Shown here: positions 3,568 to 36,090 of the stretch, piece by piece | How positions within the stretch are numbered: position 1 is the stretch's first letter | Layout of the letters: each line of letters opens with the position of its first letter | Notes under the pieces: generated by a model | Databases searched by the model: none | What the model was told of the DNA's origin: nothing | The model's input: the letters and a program-made list of their open reading frames with translations, nothing else | Virus record (IMG/VR): IMGVR_UViG_3300043119_000192 | Span: 1-38,346 of that record | DNA: 38,346 nucleotides | Direction: 5' to 3' (one strand) | Source: a virus | Made by a program: the position numbers and the translations under genes

Positions 3568-6018
3568 TTACGCCCCGGTCGTCCCGTTAATGTACGGTCG
3601 CGGCATCGGATTGATGCGCCATGCAACGGAAAGGTTGCCCGTTACGTTGGTATCGGTTTTGATCGTGAAGTTGGTTCCACCGATGGCCCACACTTCCAAT
3701 CCGCCGCCACCCACACCCACGCCGCCATTGGACTTTAGCACCGAAAACGAGCTAATGCGCGGATTGCGAGGCAGGCCGTGAGCGACTGTGATGGAATTGG
3801 TTCCGCTAAGGATCGTCGCTGCACCCGCAGCGTGTTGCCGTTCAGACCAATCGCCATCGAGCAGCAGGTACGGGCAATTGCCGATGCCCGCGAACTGTGT
3901 TGTCGCCCCTGCCATCTTGTTATTCAGGAACTCGGCATAGGTCAGCGTAGCGTTACCAACGGCAATCGGCGTATTGATGCTTCCGAAAGCTCCGGTGATA
4001 ATCTCGTTATCGCGGCACTCGACTTTGCCCACGGCCATAGCCGTTGCGGACGCGCCATAAAACAGCGCGCCGTCGAGAGTGACAGTGCTGGTGATCGTGC
4101 GCGGATTGCGCAGCGTGTTGTTGTTGAATTTGAACTCGGTAATTTGTGCCGCGTTCAGCGGGTCGGTCGCCCTAGTGTAATTGACCACTTCCAGCCCTTC
4201 GGCGTCAAGGATCTGCACCGCAGCGTTTCGGAAGGCAAACAGGTTCTCGACATTGCGGAAGGTCGTATCCCGCAGCTTCACCCACTTGCAGGCGTCATCG
4301 GTGCGATAGACCACCCCGCCACTGGTGTACGTGCCTGAATAGGCCAGCGAGGTAATATCAAACTCTGTCGTAGAGATAACCGTACAATCCCCTGCACCGT
4401 TGGTAATCCCGCCCGCGTCTGCAAGCCTGATGTTTTCGCCAGTGCTATACCCGTGTGCGCTGCTAGTAGTCACGCGCACTTGGCCCGAACCGTTATCGGC
4501 TACAGTCGAGACAATTTTGTTATCGCTGTAAAGCCGGATAGCGTGGATTGAATTGAGGCACCGCGTTGCGGCTGAATAGCTCGCATCCCAGTTTGTCGTG
4601 AGGTCAAACGCAGTCGTTGAAACCAGCGTCGCCACATTGCCTACCGCCCCAACACCCGCACCGCTTTCAAAGCGGATGGCGTTGTTCGCATAATACCCGT
4701 GCGCCGTGGTCGTCGTAATCCGCACCTTGCCCGCGCCGTTATCAGCAATGCTGGCAATCGTAAGCGCATTGTCGCCAACCACGTCAAAATCATTTGCGCC
4801 AATGAAAAAGCTCACAACGCTTTTGGCGAGGATCGCCGCCGTGGTGTTGTTCACCGTTGGCTTGATGCCCTTGCCAACATTGCCGTAGATCAATGCCTGA
4901 TTTGGCCGCGCCGTCCGGTCGAGCGAATAGTTGGCACCGCAGATGAAAAAGATATTAGCGTTATAAATCTGATTGTTGCAGATGGTCTGCCGGTCGTTGA
5001 TGCGGATGCCGCCGCCGCCTGCTTGGGTCAGCGTCCCGCCGACATTGTCATAGGTTACGAATTGGCCGGGGCTAAAAATCACGTTGTCTGCAATCACGCC
5101 CGAAGCGGAGAAAAATGCAACCGCAATGGCGTCGTCGCCAGTAAAATTAATGTAGTTACGGCATACCTGAAAGCCCATGCCGAAATTCGGCACGTATCCG
5201 CGCAAGTCTACCGCCGTTGCGCCGATCCGGTAGAAGCGGTTATCGCAGACGGACCAACCCGCACCGCTGATGTCCGACGATACGGCGAACAAACCAGTGT
5301 CCTCAAAAACACAGTGGTGAACCCGCACGTTAGACGACCTCAGCCCATAGACGCACGACTTGTTCGAACGGTCCACAAAGCCACCCGCAAAGCTATGGCT
5401 CATCCGCAGGCCGCTAATCTCGACATCATCAATGTCGATCAGGGTGAACAAGTGATTGAACTGATCGGCGCGAAAAACTTTGGCCCCACTGCCATAGATG
5501 CGCGCACCCGAACGCAAGGCAACGGGGCTAGTGATTTTGTAATTCTCGCTGGGGCCGCCATACTGCACATAGAGCGAAGCGTTATGCGCCGCCTGAAGCG
5601 CAGCCGTATCGTCTGTGGTGCCGTCACCGGTAGCGCCGAAGTCCTTTACGTGGACAATATCCCGCATCTTGTTTTGAGCGGTGCGAGTAACCGCCCCCGT
5701 GCCAGCCTGCAAGAATGTAAAGTCCGCACTGCTTGCCGAGATCACCACGTTGTTGCCATTCGTCACAACGCGGCTGTTGTCGTCCAGCACCGTAATCGAG
5801 ACGGTGGAGGCAGCGGAATAAATGCCAGCCTTTGCGCCCTGATAAGCAGGATAGCCGTTGACCGTGCGGATCGGCTGCGCCCATGGCAGGGTTTGCGCTA
5901 CGTCACGATAGACCGTGATCGGATTGGTGCGCGCGTCCAGCCCTGCCGAACCGACATAGATGTAGCCGCCCGTACCGGCTTCGGGAAAGTAGGGGAACGG
6001 ATCGAGGATGTCGGTCAT
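3568..6018 (-). CDS. Tailspike / depolymerase with a right-handed beta-helix (pectate-lyase-like) domain
   Basis: VKDFGATGDGTTDDTAALQAA is the signature at the start of pectate-lyase/polygalacturonase-type beta-helices. The N-terminal particle-binding-type segment is GGYIYVGSAGLDARTNPITVY...QPIRT. The central part carries a two-copy internal domain repeat. Confidence 0.85.
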   Translation of the reverse strand: MTDILDPFPYFPEAGTGGYIYVGSAGLDARTNPITVYRDVAQTLPWAQPIRTVNGYPAYQGAKAGIYSAASTVSITVLDDNSRVVTNGNNVVISASSADFTFLQAGTGAVTRTAQNKMRDIVHVKDFGATGDGTTDDTAALQAAHNASLYVQYGGPSENYKITSPVALRSGARIYGSGAKVFRADQFNHLFTLIDIDDVEISGLRMSHSFAGGFVDRSNKSCVYGLRSSNVRVHHCVFEDTGLFAVSSDISGAGWSVCDNRFYRIGATAVDLRGYVPNFGMGFQVCRNYINFTGDDAIAVAFFSASGVIADNVIFSPGQFVTYDNVGGTLTQAGGGGIRINDRQTICNNQIYNANIFFICGANYSLDRTARPNQALIYGNVGKGIKPTVNNTTAAILAKSVVSFFIGANDFDVVGDNALTIASIADNGAGKVRITTTTAHGYYANNAIRFESGAGVGAVGNVATLVSTTAFDLTTNWDASYSAATRCLNSIHAIRLYSDNKIVSTVADNGSGQVRVTTSSAHGYSTGENIRLADAGGITNGAGDCTVISTTEFDITSLAYSGTYTSGGVVYRTDDACKWVKLRDTTFRNVENLFAFRNAAVQILDAEGLEVVNYTRATDPLNAAQITEFKFNNNTLRNPRTITSTVTLDGALFYGASATAMAVGKVECRDNEIITGAFGSINTPIAVGNATLTYAEFLNNKMAGATTQFAGIGNCPYLLLDGDWSERQHAAGAATILSGTNSITVAHGLPRNPRISSFSVLKSNGGVGVGGGGLEVWAIGGTNFTIKTDTNVTGNLSVAWRINPMPRPYINGTTGA

Positions 6019-26421: not shown

Positions 26422-27074
26422 GCGTTCAACTCCGACCAGCGCTTAACGATCTCGCGCATCCATGGCGTTGCGTCCTTTTCAAACTTGCGTAAGCCATTGA
26501 TGACGGTGCTGTGATCCCTGCCACCGATCCACCGGCCCACTTGCGCAAGGCTGTTTGTTCCGCGCGAGGAAAGAACCTTGTAGGCCACGAGCCGCGCCTG
26601 CATGATAGGCTTCGACCGCTTGAGGCCGATCACATCCGCTAGCGATACGTCCATGTCGGCAGCAATGGCCGCGACAATCTCGCGATGGCCAGAGGGGATG
26701 TAATCAGGCGATGGCGGAACGTACTGACGAACGGGCTTCGGATCTTCCGGCACGGGCTTTGACACAATCCCCCGCGCCTCGTTCAGCTTTTCAAGCAGCT
26801 TTGCATCAGCCCTAACCGTAGCCTTGAACGTCTCAAAGTCGGTTTGCCGGATGTATTTGTCCGTCACATGCGCCGTCATCTTGGCTTCAAACGGTTCCGG
26901 CTTCGGCTTGCGCAGCTTGGCGATGTCGTCCCGCGTAAGCCCATGCTGGCCGTACTCGCGGTTAAGCTGAGCCATGATAAAGCCCAGATCGGAATGACGC
27001 TGCACCAGCTTTTCGGCATAGGTCTGCGGCATCCCAAGGGGATGGTTTTTAAAGTTCATCGCTGTTGCCCTCAT
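26418..27074 (-). CDS. DnaA domain IV-like HTH protein (putative replication initiation/regulation)
   Basis: The C-terminus SKPIMQARLVAYKVLSSRGTNSLAQVGRWIGGRDHSTVINGLRKFE parallels the DnaA C-terminal DNA-binding domain (…fGgRDHTTV…). Confidence 0.7.
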   Translation of the reverse strand: MRATAMNFKNHPLGMPQTYAEKLVQRHSDLGFIMAQLNREYGQHGLTRDDIAKLRKPKPEPFEAKMTAHVTDKYIRQTDFETFKATVRADAKLLEKLNEARGIVSKPVPEDPKPVRQYVPPSPDYIPSGHREIVAAIAADMDVSLADVIGLKRSKPIMQARLVAYKVLSSRGTNSLAQVGRWIGGRDHSTVINGLRKFEKDATPWMREIVKRWSELNA

Positions 27075-28294
27075 GCTGCCAAATCCTTTCCAAGTTCGGC
27101 TTTTTTGGCTTTCTTGATGTCAAGCCAGCGTCCATAAGCTTCGGACTTTGGCTGCGTTAAACCAAGCCCCTTGCACCACCAGTCATTGCGCAAAAGAACC
27201 TTGCACAAGCGGCGATATGACGGTGCCCAATGCTGATCTTCCAGAAGCTTAGGGGCTTCATCGGGAATGACGGTATAACCCCTTCCGTACCAGCCTTTAA
27301 GCCAGCTACGGAAACGAGCTATGTAATGATCGCGCGTCGGCTTTGGCAGCGACATAAGCAAGAGGTTGCAAAATGATTTCCATGTATGCCCATCAGGCCG
27401 GGCAATTTTGTTATACCCCATGATGTTGCCCATTTCCTGCACATAAATAGCACCGGAGTTTGCGCCGTTGACGCGGGCAATCAGCTTAAACCACGTTTCA
27501 GGCTCAAGCACATGGTAAAGCCAAAGCCCCTTGCGCTGATCGTCACCATAAGGCTGGCAAAGGCGCTGCTGACTAAGCGGCACACCGGCTTGCTGCATTA
27601 GGTCATAAACGTGATTGTGCGGCTTATCAGGAAACTTGGCATGGTAGCGCCAAATGTCCTGCGTCCGCCAATCGTATATTGGGTAGACGTTGTACGTCTC
27701 GCCGATCACGTAAGTTGTGTACCGCTTGCCGCCGTGTATCCGCTTGTCAAAGACGGCGATAGTGCGGAAGCGGTTTAGGCTTTCATCGGCGCGGATGCCG
27801 ACAAAGCCTGCGCACGGCTTACCTTCGCCGTACCATTCGCCAAACAACACGACAAATTCTTCAAATTCCATGCCAGGCTGAAAGAAGGGGTAAAACAGCG
27901 GCGACGTGATGGCCTCTTTGGCAGGCTGGCGCACCCAAATGTCTTGTTTGTCCGGGTCCCAGCATAACCAGCGCGGCTCGTAGTTTGTGACGGCATTGCG
28001 CAGCGACATAGGCAGGCAAACCCAATGCAGGTCTATGTGCGGACGATATAAATCGACCATTTCCTGCAAGTGGGCTTCGGTAGCCTTGTATTGAGCCTCA
28101 AGGTCGATAATCAGCACGCCAACCTTGCGCCCGCGCTTTATGGCTTCATCCATGACAAGGTGAAGCATAACGCTACTGTCCTTGCCGCCTGAGAAGCTGA
28201 CGTAGAGCTTTTCGAAATTGTCAAAGCTGTAGGAAATGCGCTCGCGCGCGGCGTCTAGGACATTCTGGTCCCGATAATGCTTTCTGTCGGTCAT
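27071..28294 (-). CDS. PAPS-reductase-family (PP-loop ATPase) protein, IbrA-like
   Basis: The PP-loop SFSGGKDSSV lies near the N-terminus, with a long C-terminal extension as in IbrA/DUF3440-type proteins. ATG at 28294 overlaps the upstream TAA. Confidence 0.8.
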   Translation of the reverse strand: MTDRKHYRDQNVLDAARERISYSFDNFEKLYVSFSGGKDSSVMLHLVMDEAIKRGRKVGVLIIDLEAQYKATEAHLQEMVDLYRPHIDLHWVCLPMSLRNAVTNYEPRWLCWDPDKQDIWVRQPAKEAITSPLFYPFFQPGMEFEEFVVLFGEWYGEGKPCAGFVGIRADESLNRFRTIAVFDKRIHGGKRYTTYVIGETYNVYPIYDWRTQDIWRYHAKFPDKPHNHVYDLMQQAGVPLSQQRLCQPYGDDQRKGLWLYHVLEPETWFKLIARVNGANSGAIYVQEMGNIMGYNKIARPDGHTWKSFCNLLLMSLPKPTRDHYIARFRSWLKGWYGRGYTVIPDEAPKLLEDQHWAPSYRRLCKVLLRNDWWCKGLGLTQPKSEAYGRWLDIKKAKKAELGKDLAA

Positions 28295-28719
28295 TAGTAA
28301 AGGTCCGCCTGCGTACGGCCTAAGGCATCTTCCATAGAGATAGCTTCGTGGCCTTTGTTTCCCATCCACGCATTAATTGCATCGAGCGCAATCCAATCAG
28401 CGCGCTTTTGCTCAAGTTCTGTCAGCAAGAAGGATCCTCCGCAGAAAAACTTGGATACGCCAGTTTCAATGCACATTGAAGCTTGCCCCATCCATGCGAT
28501 GCGGTTCATTCGCTCGTTGGTTAGGTAGTGCTCCGAACTCATGCGCCATTCGGTAATGACGCGTTCGGCTGCACTTCTAAAACGTATATCATTGCGCAAA
28601 AAATCGGCATACATGCGCTTGCAGTCCTCAATAGACCAATCCTTGCGCGGCGGTTTGGGGTTGTAGAACCCGGCTGGGTAGCATTCCCACTTTTCCCATG
28701 TGTAATAAACGCGCTGCAT
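28294..28719 (-). CDS. Hypothetical protein (141 aa) inserted between the ParB-like and PAPS-reductase-like genes
   Basis: I recognised no motif. It is translationally coupled on both sides (TGATG and TAATG). Confidence 0.55.
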   Translation of the reverse strand: MQRVYYTWEKWECYPAGFYNPKPPRKDWSIEDCKRMYADFLRNDIRFRSAAERVITEWRMSSEHYLTNERMNRIAWMGQASMCIETGVSKFFCGGSFLLTELEQKRADWIALDAINAWMGNKGHEAISMEDALGRTQADLY

Positions 28720-29378
28720 CACACTTCCTCAACCACAAGATCAAAGTCGTCTACATCCCATGATTGGGAAAAATCGTCGTCTGCAAAAAGTTCTGCAAGC
28801 CCGCTAATCTGGCAAAGGCGCAGCACCTCATCCGGCTCCATGCCAAGATTGGTGGCAATCTTTTCGTCTGACCAATTCCGCTTCTTAAGCTCAATTACAA
28901 TGTCAGACATTGCCTCAACCTTGTGCTTGCCACGTGCGCGGTTGTGCCGGATCGTGGAAGCCATACGGTCTGTCTTATCCGATTGGCTTTCGCGGATTTG
29001 AACAAGCGGAAGGTAGCCGTGCACCCGGCTTTGAATGTCTGCGCATTCCTTGCCGACGCGATGCCGGTGAAAGCCGTCGATAACCTCAAAGGTATCATCA
29101 GGATCGGCCATCGAAACGATAGGCTGCGTGTAGCCATCGGCGTCAATAGACAAGCGCAGCAATTCCATTTCTGGCGGCGCAACGCTGTTAGGGTTATAGT
29201 CGTTTGAGTGAACAAGCGTGTTTGGAACCCAACGCACAAAATCGACCGGCTCACTGCGGAATGGGCTAACTTCGTGGATAGCCTCTCGCAACTGATTGAT
29301 GGCTTCAACGCGAGCCGCTAGTGGCATATCCGCAAGCGCAGCGATATATGCCCAAACATCGTTTGGTGTTTCGTTCAT
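28719..29378 (-). CDS. ParB-like nuclease domain protein, IbrB-like
   Basis: The EVIDGFHRH motif (ParB N-terminal DGxHR box) is followed by RHNRARG. AGGAGAA SD. Confidence 0.8.
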   Translation of the reverse strand: MNETPNDVWAYIAALADMPLAARVEAINQLREAIHEVSPFRSEPVDFVRWVPNTLVHSNDYNPNSVAPPEMELLRLSIDADGYTQPIVSMADPDDTFEVIDGFHRHRVGKECADIQSRVHGYLPLVQIRESQSDKTDRMASTIRHNRARGKHKVEAMSDIVIELKKRNWSDEKIATNLGMEPDEVLRLCQISGLAELFADDDFSQSWDVDDFDLVVEEV

Positions 29379-29404
29379 TCCAATTCTCCTATTGGAAGCT
29401 AGAG

Positions 29405-29563
29405 TTATTCCGAAAAATCCGGAGCGACCATATCAGCCGCCCCGGCAGGTTCCGCGCGAAGGGGAGTGGGTGTAGGCGCGCGGGTATCTTCTAGAACACG
29501 GATGGAGTGCGGGAAGCGGAGAGCTTCCAGCCACGCGCCGGGTTCTGATTGGTCGTCAATCAT
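29405..29563 (-). CDS. Small acidic hypothetical protein (52 aa, below the ORF-track cutoff)
   Basis: The ATG immediately follows the MTase TAG stop. MIDDQSEPGAWLEALRFPHSIRVLEDTRAP... Confidence 0.3.
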   Translation of the reverse strand: MIDDQSEPGAWLEALRFPHSIRVLEDTRAPTPTPLRAEPAGAADMVAPDFSE

Positions 29564-30319
29564 CTAAGCCGTCCCTTGTTCGTGGAATGCGGACAAGATG
29601 GCATTGCCGATCAGTTCAGGGATGGCAGGGTCTACCGTGTTTCCGCACAATCCAACTCTGTCCATCCTGTTGGGAACCCTGCAAGCCATTCCGCGAAGCA
29701 AGGGTTTAGGGTGACAATCTCCGTCATTGAACGGGTCTGCGGCGATGTCGAGCAAATGCGCCTGGCCACTCTCCCGCCTTTGTCGAGCCTCGCCAATATC
29801 TTTGCTTGTGAGCAATCGCGCGGCTCGCTTTTCGGAAGGGTTAGCAACAATCCAGATGCGGTCTCGTTCTTGGCTGGCACCAACGCTTGACGCCGGAATG
29901 CAATGCCACTGCGTGTCATACCCGAGCGAGGAAAGCGCCCCGAGAACCGCGCCCATCCCTCGATTAAGCAACTCTGCCACGTTCTCCAGCACAATGTATG
30001 GGCGTCCCACCATGCAAACGGTTCGTAAAATATGCCAGAACAATCCGCTTCGCTCCCCGGCAAGTCCGGCGGCGTTTTGATTTGCGATGGAAATGTCTTG
30101 GCATGGGAAACCTGCCGTAACCACTTCCACGGGTCCGATAAGTTTAAGCGTGGTAACGTCGTCATAACACGGCACTCCCGGCCAATGCTTGGCCAAAACC
30201 TTTTGAGCGTATGGCTCTATTTCACAAAAGGCGCTTGTCTCAAAACCACCTGTGCGCTCAAGGCCAAGGCTAAAACCACCTTGCCCGCTAAACAGATCAA
30301 GGACGCGCAGCTTGCTCAC
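29564..30319 (-). CDS. DNA (cytosine-5)-methyltransferase, compact (251 aa)
   Basis: Motif I DLFSGQGG, IV GFPCQDIS, VI ENV, VIII QERDR and X GNTV. The GTG start overlaps the upstream TGA. Confidence 0.9.
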   Translation of the reverse strand: MSKLRVLDLFSGQGGFSLGLERTGGFETSAFCEIEPYAQKVLAKHWPGVPCYDDVTTLKLIGPVEVVTAGFPCQDISIANQNAAGLAGERSGLFWHILRTVCMVGRPYIVLENVAELLNRGMGAVLGALSSLGYDTQWHCIPASSVGASQERDRIWIVANPSEKRAARLLTSKDIGEARQRRESGQAHLLDIAADPFNDGDCHPKPLLRGMACRVPNRMDRVGLCGNTVDPAIPELIGNAILSAFHEQGTA

Positions 30320-31596: not shown

Positions 31597-31892
31597 TGAC
31601 CACGCAGCACACACCGGGGCCTTGGAAGCCTGTTGAGTTTGGCGGCGTCCAAATTGGGGGCGGCAAGAACTTTGAGGAAGCCGTCTGCACCATGTGGGAC
31701 AGCCGCAGCAAGCGGGGTATTGCCAATTCCCGCCTGATTGCCGCCAGCCCTGAATTGCTGGACGCGTTGGTAGGCGCAATGGACATTCTTGGCCGCGCGG
31801 AAAGCAACGCTAGCGGCAATCCTGAATGGGATTGCGTCGGCCCGCGCGTTGCCGCCGCCCGCGCCGCCATCGCCAAGGCAACCGGCCAGTGA
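31596..31892 (+). CDS. Hypothetical protein with an HTPGPW ... NSRLIAASPELLDAL motif (98 aa)
   Basis: This motif pair recurs in small phage proteins of unknown function. TGATG coupling. Confidence 0.55.
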   Translation: MTTQHTPGPWKPVEFGGVQIGGGKNFEEAVCTMWDSRSKRGIANSRLIAASPELLDALVGAMDILGRAESNASGNPEWDCVGPRVAAARAAIAKATGQ

Positions 31893-31996
31893 TGCCCCGC
31901 ACCACCCTCCGCGACCTTGCAGCCGATTGGCGCACTGGCCTCGTGATCTTCGCAGCCGCCGCGCTCCTGCCCTTCCTTGCCTGTCTGGGAGACTGA
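31892..31996 (+). CDS. Small TM peptide (34 aa, below the ORF-track cutoff)
   Basis: MPRTTLRDLAADWRTGLVIFAAAALLPFLACLGD. It is coupled at both ends. Confidence 0.35.
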   Translation: MPRTTLRDLAADWRTGLVIFAAAALLPFLACLGD

Positions 31997-31997
31997 C

Positions 31998-32882
31998 ATG
32001 AACGATATTCCTTACATCCGTAACGCCAAGTACGAAACAACCGGCGAAACTAAAGACTGGCTTGGCATCACACTATACCGCATCCGCGCCGTAGCTGACA
32101 TCGCCGCGATGGGGATCGTTGCCGGAACGATTGGTGGCTGGATCAGCAGCGAAAAGAATTTGCAGGTCTCCGGCAATGCGTGGGTCTACGGCAATGCGTT
32201 GGTCTACGGCAATGCGAGGGTCTCCGGCAATGCGAGGGTCTCCGGCAATGCGTGGGTCTACGGCAATGCGTTGGTCTACGGCAATGCGAGGGTCTCCGGC
32301 AATGCGAGGGTCTACGGCAATGCGTGGGTCTACGGCAATGCGTTGGTCTACGGCGATGCGAGGGTCTACGGCAATGCGTTGGTCTACGGCGATGCGAGGG
32401 TCTACGGCAATGCGTTGGTCTACGGCAATGCGAGGGTCTACGGCAATGCGTGGGTCTACGGCGATGCGAGGGTCTCCGGCAATGCGAGGGTCTACGGCAA
32501 TGCGTTGGTCTCCGGCAATGCGTTGGTCTACGGCAATGCGTTGGTCTACGGCAATGCGTTGGTCTACGGCAATGCGAGGGTCTACGGCAATGCGTGGGTC
32601 TACGGCGATGCGAGGGTCTCCGGCAATGCGAGGGTCTACGGCGTAAACATCACTGCTACCCGTAGTGATAGCTACACGTTTCTTGTAGCACCCACACCCG
32701 CAGGCCCGCGCATTATTGCCGGTTGCCGATACTTCACTTTTGATGAGGCTCGTGCCCATTGGGCTAGAACTCGCGGTGGTACGCAGCTTGGCGATGAAAG
32801 CCTTGCTTTGGTTGACCACCTTGAACGCATGGCAAAGCTTAACGGGTTTATCGAGCCTGTCGCCGTGAATGTGGAGGCTTGA
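31998..32882 (+). CDS. Hexapeptide-repeat protein (predicted left-handed beta-helix type) with unique N- and C-terminal domains
   Basis: 26 consecutive V-[YS]-G-[ND]-A-[WLR] units. ATG at 31998 (MNDIPY). The C-terminal RSDSYTFLV...IIAGCRYFTFDEARAHW block looks like a conserved phage domain. Confidence 0.8.
   Translation: MNDIPYIRNAKYETTGETKDWLGITLYRIRAVADIAAMGIVAGTIGGWISSEKNLQVSGNAWVYGNALVYGNARVSGNARVSGNAWVYGNALVYGNARVSGNARVYGNAWVYGNALVYGDARVYGNALVYGDARVYGNALVYGNARVYGNAWVYGDARVSGNARVYGNALVSGNALVYGNALVYGNALVYGNARVYGNAWVYGDARVSGNARVYGVNITATRSDSYTFLVAPTPAGPRIIAGCRYFTFDEARAHWARTRGGTQLGDESLALVDHLERMAKLNGFIEPVAVNVEA
32166..32642 (+). repeat. 26.5 tandem copies of an 18-bp unit GTCTMCGGCRATGCGNNG
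   Basis: Read unit by unit. Only 4 nucleotide positions per unit ever vary. All six reading frames are open across it. Confidence 0.95.
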
Positions 32883-33019
32883 CATGCACCACTGCACCCA
32901 CATCCCCCATCGCCAAAGCCCTGACCGCGTGTGGCCTCTGCGCCGCGCTGATGGTTCCAAGTTCCACGAGCCGCGCCGGGATGATGAGCCGCGTTTGCCG
33001 ATCAAGGGGAGCAACTGAC

Positions 33020-33724
33020 ATGAACGCACAAACACCCATCCAGCCGTCCATCGTTTCCGCGCTTGCCGCTGCGCTGCCGGAACTTGAGAGCGCCAAGAAG
33101 AACAAGGCACACCCCGCGTTCAAGTCAAAGTACGCCGATCTGGCGGCAGTGATCGAGGCGCTGGAACCCATCCGCAAGCATGGCCTGTGGTATCTCCAGC
33201 GCGCTATTGAGAACGCGGACGGCGCGCAGATCGAAACTATCTACATTCACACCAGCGGGGTAACACTTTCCGCTGGCACCACGTTTATGCCCGCCACTAA
33301 GAAGGATGCGCAGGGCTTTGGTTCCGCATTGTCCTATTGCCGCCGCTATGGCCTGCAAACAGCATTCGGGCTGGCCACGGAGGATGATGACGGAAACGCT
33401 GCCGTAAAGGCCTCACAGCGCACACAAAGCGATGCAGAGCCTGCCAAGCGTGAAGCGTCCCACAGCGCGCTCAAGACCGCATACCGGCAGTTTGTGCATG
33501 AAGCCAATGGGTGCGGCGATGCAGACGAGCTTAACGCCTATCTCGCAACGCCTGATGCGCTTAAGGTTGTGCGCGAGATCAAGGCCAAGCTTCCGCATAT
33601 CTGGGATGGCACCAATTGGCCTGAAAGCCAGCCGCGCCCGGATGAATGGGAACCGCTGGCCGACTTCATCACCCGCCGCCAGCGTGAATGCGCGCAGGCT
33701 ACCGCAAACTACATGACAGCCTGA
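33020..33724 (+). CDS. erf: Erf-family single-strand annealing recombinase
   Basis: ALPELESAKKNKAHPAFKSKYADLAAVIEAL...GSALSYCRRYGLQTAFGLATEDDDGN matches ERF family blocks. AGGGGAG SD before the ATG at 33020. Confidence 0.85.
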   Translation: MNAQTPIQPSIVSALAAALPELESAKKNKAHPAFKSKYADLAAVIEALEPIRKHGLWYLQRAIENADGAQIETIYIHTSGVTLSAGTTFMPATKKDAQGFGSALSYCRRYGLQTAFGLATEDDDGNAAVKASQRTQSDAEPAKREASHSALKTAYRQFVHEANGCGDADELNAYLATPDALKVVREIKAKLPHIWDGTNWPESQPRPDEWEPLADFITRRQRECAQATANYMTA

Positions 33725-33735
33725 AAGGAAAGAAC

Positions 33736-34002
33736 ATGGCAAGCCGCCGCGATATTTGCACACCACGCAAGAAGTCCGATGGGGGAACCTACTGGGTCAA
33801 GATCGGCACCGCATGGGATAGCGACAAGGGAACGCAGCTTGTGTTTGATGCGCTCCCGATACCTGATGCCGAAGGGCGCTGCGTGGCCAATCTGTTCGAG
33901 CCGCGCGAGAATGACAATCCGCGTGGCAAGTCCGCAGCGGGCGACCGCCAGCAGGCACGGCAGCGGGCGCAGGATGATGACGGGGACTCGATCCCATTCT
34001 AG
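33736..34002 (+). CDS. Small protein (88 aa) with an SSB-type acidic C-terminal tip
   Basis: It ends in DDDGDSIPF (compare the bacterial SSB tip DDDIPF), preceded by a Gln/Arg-rich linker and a short N-terminal beta-type segment. AAGGAAAG SD. Confidence 0.6.
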   Translation: MASRRDICTPRKKSDGGTYWVKIGTAWDSDKGTQLVFDALPIPDAEGRCVANLFEPRENDNPRGKSAAGDRQQARQRAQDDDGDSIPF

Positions 34003-34052
34003 GCCCAACACCGCTGGCAGGCCGGTTGTCTGCCAAACCATAGGAGAATGAT

Positions 34053-34382
34053 ATGTCTACCCCAAGCATTACCCCCGTCACTGTTGTCGCCATGCGCAAA
34101 GTCTTTGCGCTGCTTGAGGACCATTTTGATCCGGTTGAAGGGATGTACAAAAACGCATATTCTGACAAGAAAGTTGCCGCTGAAACTGGCATTTCAGTTG
34201 ATGCAGTCAAAAAGTATCGCGTCGATGGCTTTGGCAAGCTTAAGGCACCCAGCGAACTTGTGACGCTTCGCCAACAGATTGATGAACTTGAAACACTTTT
34301 TCTCAAAACCGAAGCCGAAATGAAGGCTCAAATCAAGGATACCCGCGCGCGCATTCTTCAGCTTCAGAGGGGGTTTGACTAA
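34053..34382 (+). CDS. Hypothetical protein (109 aa)
   Basis: AGGAGA SD, with a C-terminal coiled-coil-like segment. Confidence 0.5.
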   Translation: MSTPSITPVTVVAMRKVFALLEDHFDPVEGMYKNAYSDKKVAAETGISVDAVKKYRVDGFGKLKAPSELVTLRQQIDELETLFLKTEAEMKAQIKDTRARILQLQRGFD

Positions 34383-34684
34383 TGACACCTGTAAAGCAAG
34401 CCCGCGTAATTCGCGATTGGTTCGCCCGTGAAAAGGTCCATGAAAGCGCAGAATATATTATTGCCACGGACGCATCTGTGTTTGTGCAAACAGAATACAT
34501 TCAAAACAAAAAGCGGCCTGAAATGTTCTTACTTTTGATCGAGCATGAAGGCGGAAAAATTTCCATTCCGTTTAACTCTGAAATAATGGGTAAATGGAAA
34601 AAGGAAATTGCTGAATTTAGCCATGCCTTTTGGCTGCAAGGCCAACATTTGCCTTACGCGCAATATGGAAAGCGGAAAGGTTAA
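34382..34684 (+). CDS. Hypothetical protein (100 aa), low-GC island
   Basis: TAATG coupling and AT-rich codon usage unlike the rest of the genome. Confidence 0.5.
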   Translation: MTPVKQARVIRDWFAREKVHESAEYIIATDASVFVQTEYIQNKKRPEMFLLLIEHEGGKISIPFNSEIMGKWKKEIAEFSHAFWLQGQHLPYAQYGKRKG

Positions 34685-34687
34685 GAA

Positions 34688-35020
34688 ATGCTTCCCCCTC
34701 GCAAAGCCAAAAAGCCCAAGGCAGAAACCCGCTGGCGTTCCCAAGCTCACCTTGGGTTCGTCCGCAGCCATTGCTGTTCAGTATGCCATAGCGATGCAGG
34801 GATTGAGGCGGCGCATGTTCGCCTCGGTTCCGGCGCTGGCATGGGGCAGCGTCCTCATGATTTTCTTGCAGTCAGCCTTTGCCGAGATTGTCATCAAAAA
34901 CAGCATACCATAGGCGAAAGAACGTTTTGGGATGGCGTAAATTTGCAAGAATTGATAGAAGCGTTTTGCAAAGCCAGCCCAAAAGCGCGCGAAATAAAGG
35001 ACTTTCGCAATGCAAAATGA
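34688..35020 (+). CDS. Cys/His-rich HNH-like protein (DUF968-like)
   Basis: WRSQAHLGFVRSHCCSVCH...IEAAHVR...LCRDCHQKQH resembles the DUF968/HNH-type pattern of lambdoid prophage proteins. Confidence 0.55.
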   Translation: MLPPRKAKKPKAETRWRSQAHLGFVRSHCCSVCHSDAGIEAAHVRLGSGAGMGQRPHDFLAVSLCRDCHQKQHTIGERTFWDGVNLQELIEAFCKASPKAREIKDFRNAK

Positions 35021-35480
35021 TCGTCGATGCGTAAAGTGCGGAGAACCTCTTTTGCGAAAAGAGGGGGAAAGCCATAGATACTTTGCTGATCGTAAATTTT
35101 GTTCTCGTGCGTGTTATCTTGGCAATAGATCCACAAAGCCCATTTGGATGACTTTTCAAGAAAATACTATCAAGCGAGAAAACGGATGTATTGAATGGCA
35201 GGGGTATGCCGACCGCAAGGGATACGGACGTTTTTCAACACACGGAGGCGAAGTGTTGTGCCATCGCATAGCTTATGCCATTCATTTTGGCATTAGCGTA
35301 GCCGGAAAACAGGTTTTGCATCGTTGCGACAACAGATTGTGCTGCAATCCGCAGCATTTGTTTCTGGGAACGCACAAAGATAATATGGCAGATATGGCGC
35401 GAAAGGGGAGGTCTCCTAAGCGGTTTGGCCAACAAAACCCGAATTATCGTCATGGCAAGAATTGTGTTGTTAATGGCTAA
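35010..35480 (+). CDS. HNH homing-type endonuclease (HNH_3-like)
   Basis: NGCIEWQGYADRKGYGRF...CHRIAY...VLHRCDNRLCCNPQHLFLGTHKDNMAD is the classic HNH_3 pattern. Confidence 0.85.
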   Translation: MQNDRRCVKCGEPLLRKEGESHRYFADRKFCSRACYLGNRSTKPIWMTFQENTIKRENGCIEWQGYADRKGYGRFSTHGGEVLCHRIAYAIHFGISVAGKQVLHRCDNRLCCNPQHLFLGTHKDNMADMARKGRSPKRFGQQNPNYRHGKNCVVNG

Positions 35481-35483
35481 CAA

Positions 35484-35903
35484 ATGACTGATCGCCGCAC
35501 TATCGTCTTGACAAGCCAAACAGCCAAGGACCGGGCCAAGCGTCTCATCGATCTGGCACCCTATGGCTATGTCATGGCGATAGGCGAGGAAACGCGCTCG
35601 CAGTCCCAGAACAAACTGATGTGGCCGCTAATCTCGGACATACAGGCGCAAGTGCCGGGTATGGAGACATTCTCGCCCGATGACATAAAGCTGCGGTTCC
35701 TTCACGCGCTAGGGCAGGAACTGCGCTTTCTGCCGGAGCTTGAAGGGGCAGGCGTTTTTCCCGTAGGGCAACGTTCCTCTACGTTGTCGAAGTCGCAATT
35801 CACGGCGATGATTGAACTGATGTTTGAATACGGCGTTAGGCATGGTGTGCGATGGTCCGCTAAGTCGGAATCAACGCGCGCGGATCAAAACCTAGTCAAA
35901 TAA
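35484..35903 (+). CDS. ninB: NinB/Orf-family recombination mediator
   Basis: The blocks RSQSQNKLMWPLISDI and GQRSSTLSKSQFTAMIELMFEYGVRHGVRWS parallel lambda NinB (RSLDQNRKLWACLGDV, GQSTSRMRVGEFAELLELIQAFGTERGVKWS). Confidence 0.8.
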   Translation: MTDRRTIVLTSQTAKDRAKRLIDLAPYGYVMAIGEETRSQSQNKLMWPLISDIQAQVPGMETFSPDDIKLRFLHALGQELRFLPELEGAGVFPVGQRSSTLSKSQFTAMIELMFEYGVRHGVRWSAKSESTRADQNLVK

Positions 35904-35946
35904 ATAATCCGCTTGCAATGCGCGGAATGCCGCTTATGATGGCGGA

Positions 35947-36090
35947 ATGAACTGGAAAACATACCTTAAGGATCAAGAACGCGACCGGCTTGCAGAGCTT
36001 GCAGCCGATCGCACCACTAACCGCGCTGAATACCGCCGCATCTATGATCGGTGCCGCAAGCGCGCTGCCAAGCTGGAGCAACAACCATGA
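35947..36090 (+). CDS. Small basic protein (47 aa, below the ORF-track cutoff)
   Basis: MNWKTYLKDQERDRLAELAADRTTNRAEYRRIYDRCRKRAAKLEQQP. Its stop overlaps the next ATG (ATGA). Confidence 0.4.
   Translation: MNWKTYLKDQERDRLAELAADRTTNRAEYRRIYDRCRKRAAKLEQQP

Follow-up and report, generated by a model that had tools for sequence, protein, structure and literature searches.

Near-identical hexapeptide units in a phage protein of apparent YdcK beta-solenoid type: silent-site uniformity and variety at three positions across a phage-borne family

The present study concerns a gene at positions 31998 to 32882, plus strand, of a 38,346-nucleotide (nt) stretch of viral DNA (IMG/VR record IMGVR_UViG_3300043119_000192, positions 1 to 38,346), hereafter the window, whose product is built around 26 near-identical hexapeptides. 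Our best explanation as a whole, to which we give a probability of about 60%, is that of a three-part phage accessory protein, made of an N-terminal cap, a beta-solenoid array and a C-terminal domain, in which the array would homogenize itself through exchanges between its own units. This gene is not an element of a new kind, as it belongs to a known, catalogued and uncharacterized family. Going beyond the first-pass annotation of this DNA, made from the letters and their reading frames, we find the gene to be one member of a huge family already present in Pfam and PHROGs. The gene and its parts are listed below with the support for each.

31998 to 32882, plus strand: solenoid gene, coding in full for 294 amino acids (aa) and a stop codon (open reading frame [ORF] translation, Pfam PF18836, PHROG 5070/7964, YdcK structures 2f9c/2pig).
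31998 to 32165, plus strand: N-terminal YdcK-like cap domain, aa 1-56 (YdcK alignment, 40 homologues, AlphaFold2).
32166 to 32633, plus strand: 26 in-frame units of 18 base pairs (bp), V-[Y/S]-G-[N/D]-A-[W/L/R] (unit-by-unit reading, Tandem Repeats Finder).
32634 to 32642, plus strand: partial 27th unit GTCTACGGC (9 nt, V-Y-G), leading into the C-terminal domain (direct reading).
32643 to 32879, plus strand: C-terminal alpha/beta domain, aa 216-294, 79 aa (PHROG 20532, AlphaFold2).

Direct reading of the array gave 26 contiguous, in-register units of the form GTCT[A/C]CGGC[A/G]ATGCG[T/A][G/T]G, and Tandem Repeats Finder delimited the same tract as 32165 to 32642 (period 18, 26.6 copies, score 732), by far the top array in the window. 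Columns 5, 10, 16, and 17 are the sole variable ones; they fall at first or second codon positions in the solenoid frame, and each variant changes an amino acid (Tyr/Ser, Asn/Asp, and Trp/Leu/Arg). The sixth position of the hexapeptide is Trp in 5 units, Leu in 9, and Arg in 12, and the 26 units comprise 7 distinct types with zero synonymous differences between them. The first-pass annotation had reported this unit count with its partial 27th copy, the four variable positions with their residue counts, and the lack of silent change, all of which stood up to unit-by-unit reading, and it had estimated nonrepetitive flanks of about 55 and 80 aa, close to the 56 and 79 aa delimited here.

Drawing codons independently from this phage's own usage returned a log10 P of -77 for the uniformity of the array, and several array codons are rare in this phage (AGG, 7% of Arg codons; TTG, 17% of Leu; TCC, 17% of Ser). 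Thus, codon bias offers no explanation for the uniformity. The alternative codons are each a single base away from TGG, TAC, or AAT, suggesting that variants arise by point mutation inside an already uniform unit. By our own arithmetic, about one-quarter of the possible single-base changes per unit are synonymous, and the chance that four variable columns should all be nonsynonymous is ~0.35, which is not significant for the window array taken alone. The nonsynonymous-only pattern is compelling only at the scale of the family, through comparative data. Exact block repeats of 91 nt (offset of 8 units) and 76 nt (offset of 4 units) also occur inside the array. A diversity-generating retroelement target was considered and rejected, the variable columns being A/C, A/G, T/A, and G/T rather than template adenines only; a reverse transcriptase was not systematically searched for in the window.

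At the protein level, PF18836 (YdcK beta-solenoid repeat, B_solenoid_ydck) matches the 294-aa product with 141.9 bits against a cutoff of 30 (E=4.3e-43, 16 matched stretches). Salmonella YdcK (2f9c_A; also 2pig) aligns with E=4.4e-22 over query residues 12-215 and chain residues 15-218, N-terminal cap included, the cap (aa 1-56) pairing with YdcK residues 15-60. Both matches favor the beta-helix fold that had been read from the six-residue periodicity, and we consider it almost certain that the protein belongs to the YdcK beta-solenoid repeat family. PHROG 5070 (E=2.1e-82) and PHROG 7964 (E=2.7e-77) match the protein and PHROG 20532 (E=1.5e-28) its C-terminal part, all three carrying no functional assignment. 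The number of database proteins that match at E below 1e-5 exceeds 7,900, and relatives are encoded in 181 stretches of species-representative genomes from many bacterial phyla, in at least 594 viral-contig stretches, and in 85 records of sequenced phages. The nearest relative of the window gene has 71% protein identity and 75% DNA identity, the latter over the gene only; an exact search with flanking DNA in viral contigs gave no match, nor did complete E. coli genomes give any DNA match to the gene. All 40 aligned homologues have the three-part architecture of cap, array, and C-terminal domain, with the motifs L.RIRA and GGW conserved in the cap. An AlphaFold2 model of the full protein, built on this 40-sequence alignment, has a predicted local distance difference test (pLDDT) score of about 90 for the N-terminal domain (~87-92 over residues 11-50) and about 97 for the C-terminal domain. 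Four small homologues (P0124, P0126, P0127, and P0129; 128-138 aa) join the N-terminal cap to the C-terminal domain through just one or two hexapeptide units, and may be either genuine minimal forms or products of collapsed assembly.

Two other types of beta-helical protein have to be weighed against this family assignment. According to the first, the gene would encode a left-handed beta-helix enzyme of the acyltransferase type, as database names of homologues would have it ("acetyltransferase-like, isoleucine patch superfamily" and "putative transferase"), with a weak structure match to LpxA (4r36, E=0.005) and with PF00132 hexapeptide repeats in a few relatives of the C-terminal domain. However, PF00132 is absent from the Pfam matches of the protein itself even at E up to 1, the near-perfect unit copies leave no loops or insertions to build an active site, and the same C-terminal domain usually sits on pentapeptide solenoids, a different fold. 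Moreover, unit number is free to vary between close relatives, a latitude that few catalytic cores would be expected to show, and we regard an enzyme of this type as highly improbable. The second would make the product a bactofilin-like, polymer-forming cytoskeletal protein, given a PF04519 (Bactofilin) match of 37.5 bits over a cutoff of 27.9 and the name "polymer-forming cytoskeletal protein" given to some homologues by the NCBI pipeline. This match is limited to residues 41-105 and lies beneath the far stronger one to PF18836, while the conserved globular domains at both solenoid ends would be expected to block end-to-end stacking, making a bactofilin-like polymer very unlikely.

For the comparison across the family, arrays were extracted by script from fetched loci, giving 148 distinct arrays of at least 10 units each (median 21, maximum 46). 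Synonymous differences between units are absent from 70 of the 148 and stay under 5% in 103. The majority codon nevertheless differs from array to array, for Val (GTC in 60, GTG in 55, GTT in 25, GTA in 12) as for Ala (GCG in 57, GCT in 56, GCA in 27, GCC in 12). Uniformity within arrays together with differing codons between arrays argues that each lineage has been homogenized separately, i.e., for concerted evolution, one of the two origins, along with very recent expansion, put forward in the first-pass annotation. The silent-site comparison of homologues that it had also proposed thus shows uniformity within arrays to be a property of the family.

What varies is as regular as what does not. 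Columns 5, 10, 16, and 17 are variable in 99, 98, 100, and 94% of the arrays, respectively, versus 18 to 28% for third codon positions, with the exception of column 18 (57%). Val occupies position 1 of the hexapeptide in 98%, Gly position 3 in 92%, and Ala position 5 in 97%, whereas position 2 is Y/S/C/F, position 4 N/D, and position 6 R/W/Q/E/K/L, Trp being found at position 6 in 144 of 145 arrays. Silent-site uniformity with variety at positions 2, 4, and 6 only is a family-wide pattern in the sequences compared, across phyla, and we found no report of it in the searchable literature. The alternation of constant positions 1, 3, and 5 with variable positions 2, 4, and 6 would fit an inward/outward pattern of side chains. 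Variation that was merely tolerated at positions 2, 4, and 6 should vanish as silent variation does; we therefore infer that selection keeps or restores it, and consider it probable that selection maintains surface variety. Mean charge across the family is -0.16 per unit. DNA mimicry appeared unlikely and was set aside, as the family is only slightly negative and the window array is net positive (12 Arg versus 4 Asp).

The first-pass annotation had also suggested that copy number may vary between virions; closely related phages do differ in unit number or order. Contigs with 94 to 99.6% identical flanks carry from 14 to 33 units in largely scrambled order, and one contig pair has 26 differences in a 378-nt array versus 1 in 600 flanking nt; such contigs are mostly short-read metagenomic ones, to which misassembly could contribute, and for that reason cultured isolates were compared. 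The cultured Edwardsiella phages ETP-1, ZHX, KF-1, and IW-1, whose flanks are 99 to 99.9% identical, carry 9, about 11, 9, and 8 units, respectively, and the 5' half of the array is rearranged among the four. Among the Streptococcus thermophilus isolates Sfi19, SFi18, and CHPC919, 13 of 17 and 10 of 16 differences over 1,901 bp lie inside the 306-bp array. The array is, hence, a hot spot of change in cultured isolates as well. Beside these phages, Symbiopectobacterium sp. RP carries two copies of the gene on one contig (L046 and L049) with about 97 to 98% identical flanks, each copy having 16 units in a different order.

These comparisons also bear on whether the array, or its unit number and order, might be an assembly artifact, the true gene having far fewer units or another arrangement. 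The first-pass annotation rightly warned that short-read assemblies may misreport such an array: 468 bp of near-identical 18-mers exceeds typical short-read length, several related contigs terminate within the array (e.g., L018, L035, L039, and L071), the closest C-terminal relative (P0121) is itself a fragment at the end of a contig, and the small homologues with one or two units could be collapsed assemblies. On the other hand, arrays of 15 to 46 units are normal for the family, and arrays are found in records titled complete genome or chromosome (e.g., 28 units with zero silent differences in Sphingopyxis sp. PET50) as well as in older isolate records deposited in 1999-2000 (e.g., Sfi19 and SFi18). 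The silent-site uniformity is beyond what an assembler can create, and the reading frame runs intact through the array, linking two conserved flanking domains. We thus leave only a small chance to an artifact.

The C-terminal domain, with the conserved core RSD.Y.F...AGCR.FT..EAR.HW..TRGGT.LGDES, was also modeled alone with AlphaFold2 and gave four strands and two helices at a mean pLDDT of 92.5. It matched no PDB fold with Foldseek (best E=0.6) and no significant Pfam family (best E=0.055), while among predicted viral structures Foldseek matched it to phage solenoid proteins only (E down to 1e-6, TM-score 0.8). The search for its homologues, as proposed in the first-pass annotation, was carried out with a profile and found the domain in 1,281 cluster representatives, C-terminal every time, in proteins of 50 to 280 aa. 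Among the 136 top representatives, the solenoid partner is pentapeptide in 92, YdcK in 19, decapeptide in 10, and classic hexapeptide (PF00132) in 5, shares that are biased by a profile built partly from pentapeptide proteins. From these alignments, the type of solenoid looks interchangeable and the C-terminal domain looks like the constant part, which hints at a broader phage superfamily whose members would join this domain to a beta-solenoid of any type.

The gene is dispensable to judge from the S. thermophilus phages. The Sfi19 locus, located between cro-like and Gam-like genes, is covered to at least 80% by 5 of 179 related S. thermophilus phage records (three phages), and the remaining records, among the rows listed, match the flanks in two pieces, with a record span ~780 bp shorter. 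This pattern also bears on the possibility that the repeats act chiefly as DNA, i.e., as an iteron-like origin or a protein-binding array within a gene whose protein would be secondary. The iterons of the lambda origin do sit inside gene O, silent sites are invariant inside each array, the array is located in a replication/recombination gene cluster, and one Vibrio phage record annotates the array as a DNA feature, CRISPR (clustered regularly interspaced short palindromic repeats) spacers. But most S. thermophilus phages that are otherwise collinear lack the gene, and a replication origin could not be lost in this way. Besides, what is conserved across phyla is the peptide motif rather than the DNA, in which the codons for Val, Gly, and Ala depend on the lineage; the variable columns lie at first and second codon positions of the solenoid frame; and the Pfam and PDB matches are found at the protein level and reach into the nonrepeat flanks. 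Repeats acting chiefly as DNA are, therefore, extremely unlikely. A CRISPR array was likewise rejected, since the units are contiguous without spacers and in frame within a conserved ORF.

Returning to the three-part accessory protein with a self-homogenizing array, we propose the following model. The 18-bp units would misalign during replication or recombination, and slippage, unequal exchange, and short conversion tracts would cause units to be continually overwritten by one another. Overwriting would wipe out silent differences within each lineage, and unit number and order would shift faster than the flanking DNA. Concerted evolution through repeat recombination is very probable in light of the codon comparisons. 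Val, Gly, and Ala at positions 1, 3, and 5 would be kept constant, probably as the solenoid core, while the mixed residues at positions 2, 4, and 6 (Tyr/Ser, Asn/Asp, and Trp/Arg/Leu), probably outward facing and every one of them a single base change from a master codon, would be retained by selection. The product would be a dispensable cytoplasmic protein from the replication/recombination cluster whose probable target is a macromolecule of the host or of a rival phage; the solenoid would give it an adjustable surface or spacer, and the C-terminal domain would be the invariant part that does the work. This binding role is our leading but tentative suggestion, less likely than not, which we draw from the presence/absence pattern of the gene, its place among early/recombination genes, the rapid and constrained change of the probable surface, and its aromatic and charged character.

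More speculatively still, the protein could be a phage-encoded binding scaffold reshuffled by recombination, with positions 2, 4, and 6 as a combinatorial surface. The mix of Tyr/Ser, Asn/Asp, and Trp/Arg/Gln resembles that of minimal antibody binding sites. Although we consider such a scaffold improbable, it would imply that phage populations hold standing diversity in a counterdefense or host-targeting protein, in which recombination within the array reorders units faster than the rest of the genome mutates. The outcome would be like that of diversity-generating retroelements or the modular logic of transcription activator-like (TAL) effectors, achieved without a dedicated enzyme.

Several observations weigh against this overall interpretation. 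Structure prediction, which the first-pass annotation had advised, was confident for the flanking domains, but the repeat region reached a pLDDT of only 35 to 46, yet with a 4-residue strand about every 6 residues. Foldseek found no significant match of the full model in the PDB, the comparison with 2f9c giving E=0.7 and a TM-score of 0.27 for a model that includes the low-confidence repeat region. The left-handed helix and the assignment of residues as inward or outward are presumed wholly from sequence homology to YdcK. In the window array, the variable residues have no excess identity at lags of 1 to 8 units, their order being statistically random, and lag 3, corresponding to one helix turn, likewise has none, so that nothing points to a structural code. 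Short-read metagenome contigs, in which unit order and number are open to misassembly, are the source of many of the compared arrays, and unit number is equal in Sfi19, SFi18, and CHPC919, so length is not always unstable. With regard to function, the protein has no match among PADLOC defense-system families, a library of bacterial defense proteins and not of phage counterdefense, the searchable literature yielded nothing relevant to the protein, its repeat family, or its motifs, and the proposed function is guesswork from context. Promoter and terminator scans of the locus were at chance level and lend no support to any timing of expression; "early" expression of the gene is presumed from its position only.

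The window itself is a tailed-phage genome segment, with structural genes on the minus strand (tailspike-like protein, DNA transfer protein, major head protein, portal, and large terminase). The solenoid gene belongs to a rightward cluster, with small ORFs upstream and a 44-codon ORF, an Erf-like gene, and HNH endonucleases downstream. No Rfam families and no tRNAs were found in the window. The features immediately around the gene are as follows.

31892 to 31996, plus strand: 34-codon ORF with a hydrophobic stretch, overlapping the previous stop (TGATG) and ending 1 nt before the solenoid ATG (translation).
31987 to 31991, plus strand: GGGAG, a likely ribosome-binding site 7 nt upstream of the solenoid ATG (direct reading).
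31992 to 32003, plus strand: 12-nt direct repeat ACTGACATGAAC, copy 1, at the start of the solenoid gene (exact search).
32884 to 33018, plus strand: candidate 44-codon ORF that occupies the 137-bp gap up to erf and encodes many basic and His residues (translation).
33014 to 33025, plus strand: 12-nt direct repeat ACTGACATGAAC, copy 2, at the start of erf (exact search).
33020 to 33724, plus strand: Erf-like single-strand annealing protein (PHROG 2324, E=4e-34; PHROG 155, E=2e-30).

The 34-codon ORF may be translationally coupled to the solenoid gene. Downstream, the first-pass annotation had placed the phage's own erf about 140 bp away and linked this annealase to the turnover of the array. 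The distance was accurate (137 bp), although the gap contains the candidate 44-codon ORF; the link was not supported by comparison. The contig of the closest relative has a similar order (methylase, solenoid gene, ERF, SSB, and NinB), but across 130 related loci the genes next downstream represent 203 PHROG families, with an Erf-like gene in about 2 to 4 loci, so that a conserved partner gene was rejected. Replication/recombination genes are common beside the solenoid gene in these loci, with no fixed partner. Erf is a neighbor and not an obligate partner, and its link to the array is incidental.

The direct repeat ACTGACATGAAC occurs in exactly 2 copies in the window versus 0 expected by chance; GGGAG precedes each copy, and the pair encloses a cassette of solenoid gene and 44-codon ORF, which recombination between the two copies would excise cleanly, leaving the erf start intact. 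Such an excision would fit the presence/absence pattern of the solenoid gene in other phages. Immediately to the left of the divergent region, the minus strand at 27074 to 30316 carries PAPS-reductase-like (PHROG 2302), ParB-like (PHROG 2159), and DNA methyltransferase (PHROG 363) genes, a cluster that may be a DNA-modification module. To the right, guanine-plus-cytosine content is 0.48 to 0.50 at 34001 to 36000 compared with about 0.57 to 0.60 elsewhere in the window, suggesting a recent acquisition of that region, inside which lie HNH-endonuclease-like genes at 34688 to 35020 and 35010 to 35480.

Database labels of the family deserve a comment. In the record of Acidovorax phage AP1 (OM049504.1, L001), GenBank annotates an antisense ORF (UIS65439.1, "RIAVDP" repeat; 3831 to 4391, minus strand), and the conserved solenoid ORF, at about 3846 to 4613 on the plus strand, is unannotated. 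In Vibrio phages 1.034.O and 1.034.X (MG592418.1 and MG592419.1), the hexapeptide array, at about 39.6 to 40.2 kb, carries "CRISPR_spacer" features, and other homologues are labeled "glycerol kinase," "MFS-type transporter," "acyl-carrier-protein," or "flagellar hook-length control protein." All of these labels, the CRISPR spacers included, look like mislabels.

Altogether, among the accessory genes of tailed phages that still lack an explanation, the solenoid family is one of the commoner, and it is apparently unstudied. In phages with such a gene, the array seems to change faster than any other part, with uniform silent sites and variable probable surface residues, and such constrained change is the pattern expected of an arms-race protein. 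On the practical side, arrays of this kind break or scramble short-read assemblies, while a dispensable and modular gene makes deletions and unit-number series simple to construct.

Among known systems, YdcK of Salmonella and E. coli (PDB 2F9C and 2PIG), the product of a chromosomal gene of unknown function, has both the repeat family and the N-terminal cap in common with the window protein. In alignment, its repeats are degenerate, in contrast to the 26 near-identical units described here, and YdcK (334 aa) continues as a solenoid without the RSD...AGCR...HW C-terminal domain. Bactofilins (PF04519) resemble the window protein in a beta-helical repeat with small hydrophobic inward residues and in a weak Pfam match above the cutoff, but this match is partial and secondary, and the window solenoid is capped by other domains at both ends. 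TAL effector and ice-nucleation repeats are near-identical coding repeats in DNA, with variation in a few functional residues and changeable copy number. The likeness to the window array would lie in this repeat behavior, sequences, folds, and unit lengths being unrelated, and no recognition code comparable to that of TAL effectors is evident in the window array with its statistically random variant order. Phage pentapeptide-repeat proteins have the C-terminal domain and the layout (solenoid and then domain) in common with the window protein, with a PF00805 pentapeptide solenoid in place of hexapeptides; Qnr and MfpA are examples of pentapeptide proteins that act as DNA mimics. The phage proteins of PHROGs 5070, 7964, and 20532 (e.g., Sfi19 orf229, Acidovorax phage AP1, and Liberibacter phage SC1 gp24) differ from the window protein in unit number, in the residue set at position 6, and in C-terminal subtype, the best full-length relative (P0001) being 71% identical. 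Their architecture and type of array are nevertheless those of the window protein, the array of Acidovorax phage AP1 being 88% identical in DNA to that of the window, and their genes likewise sit with early, replication, and recombination genes.

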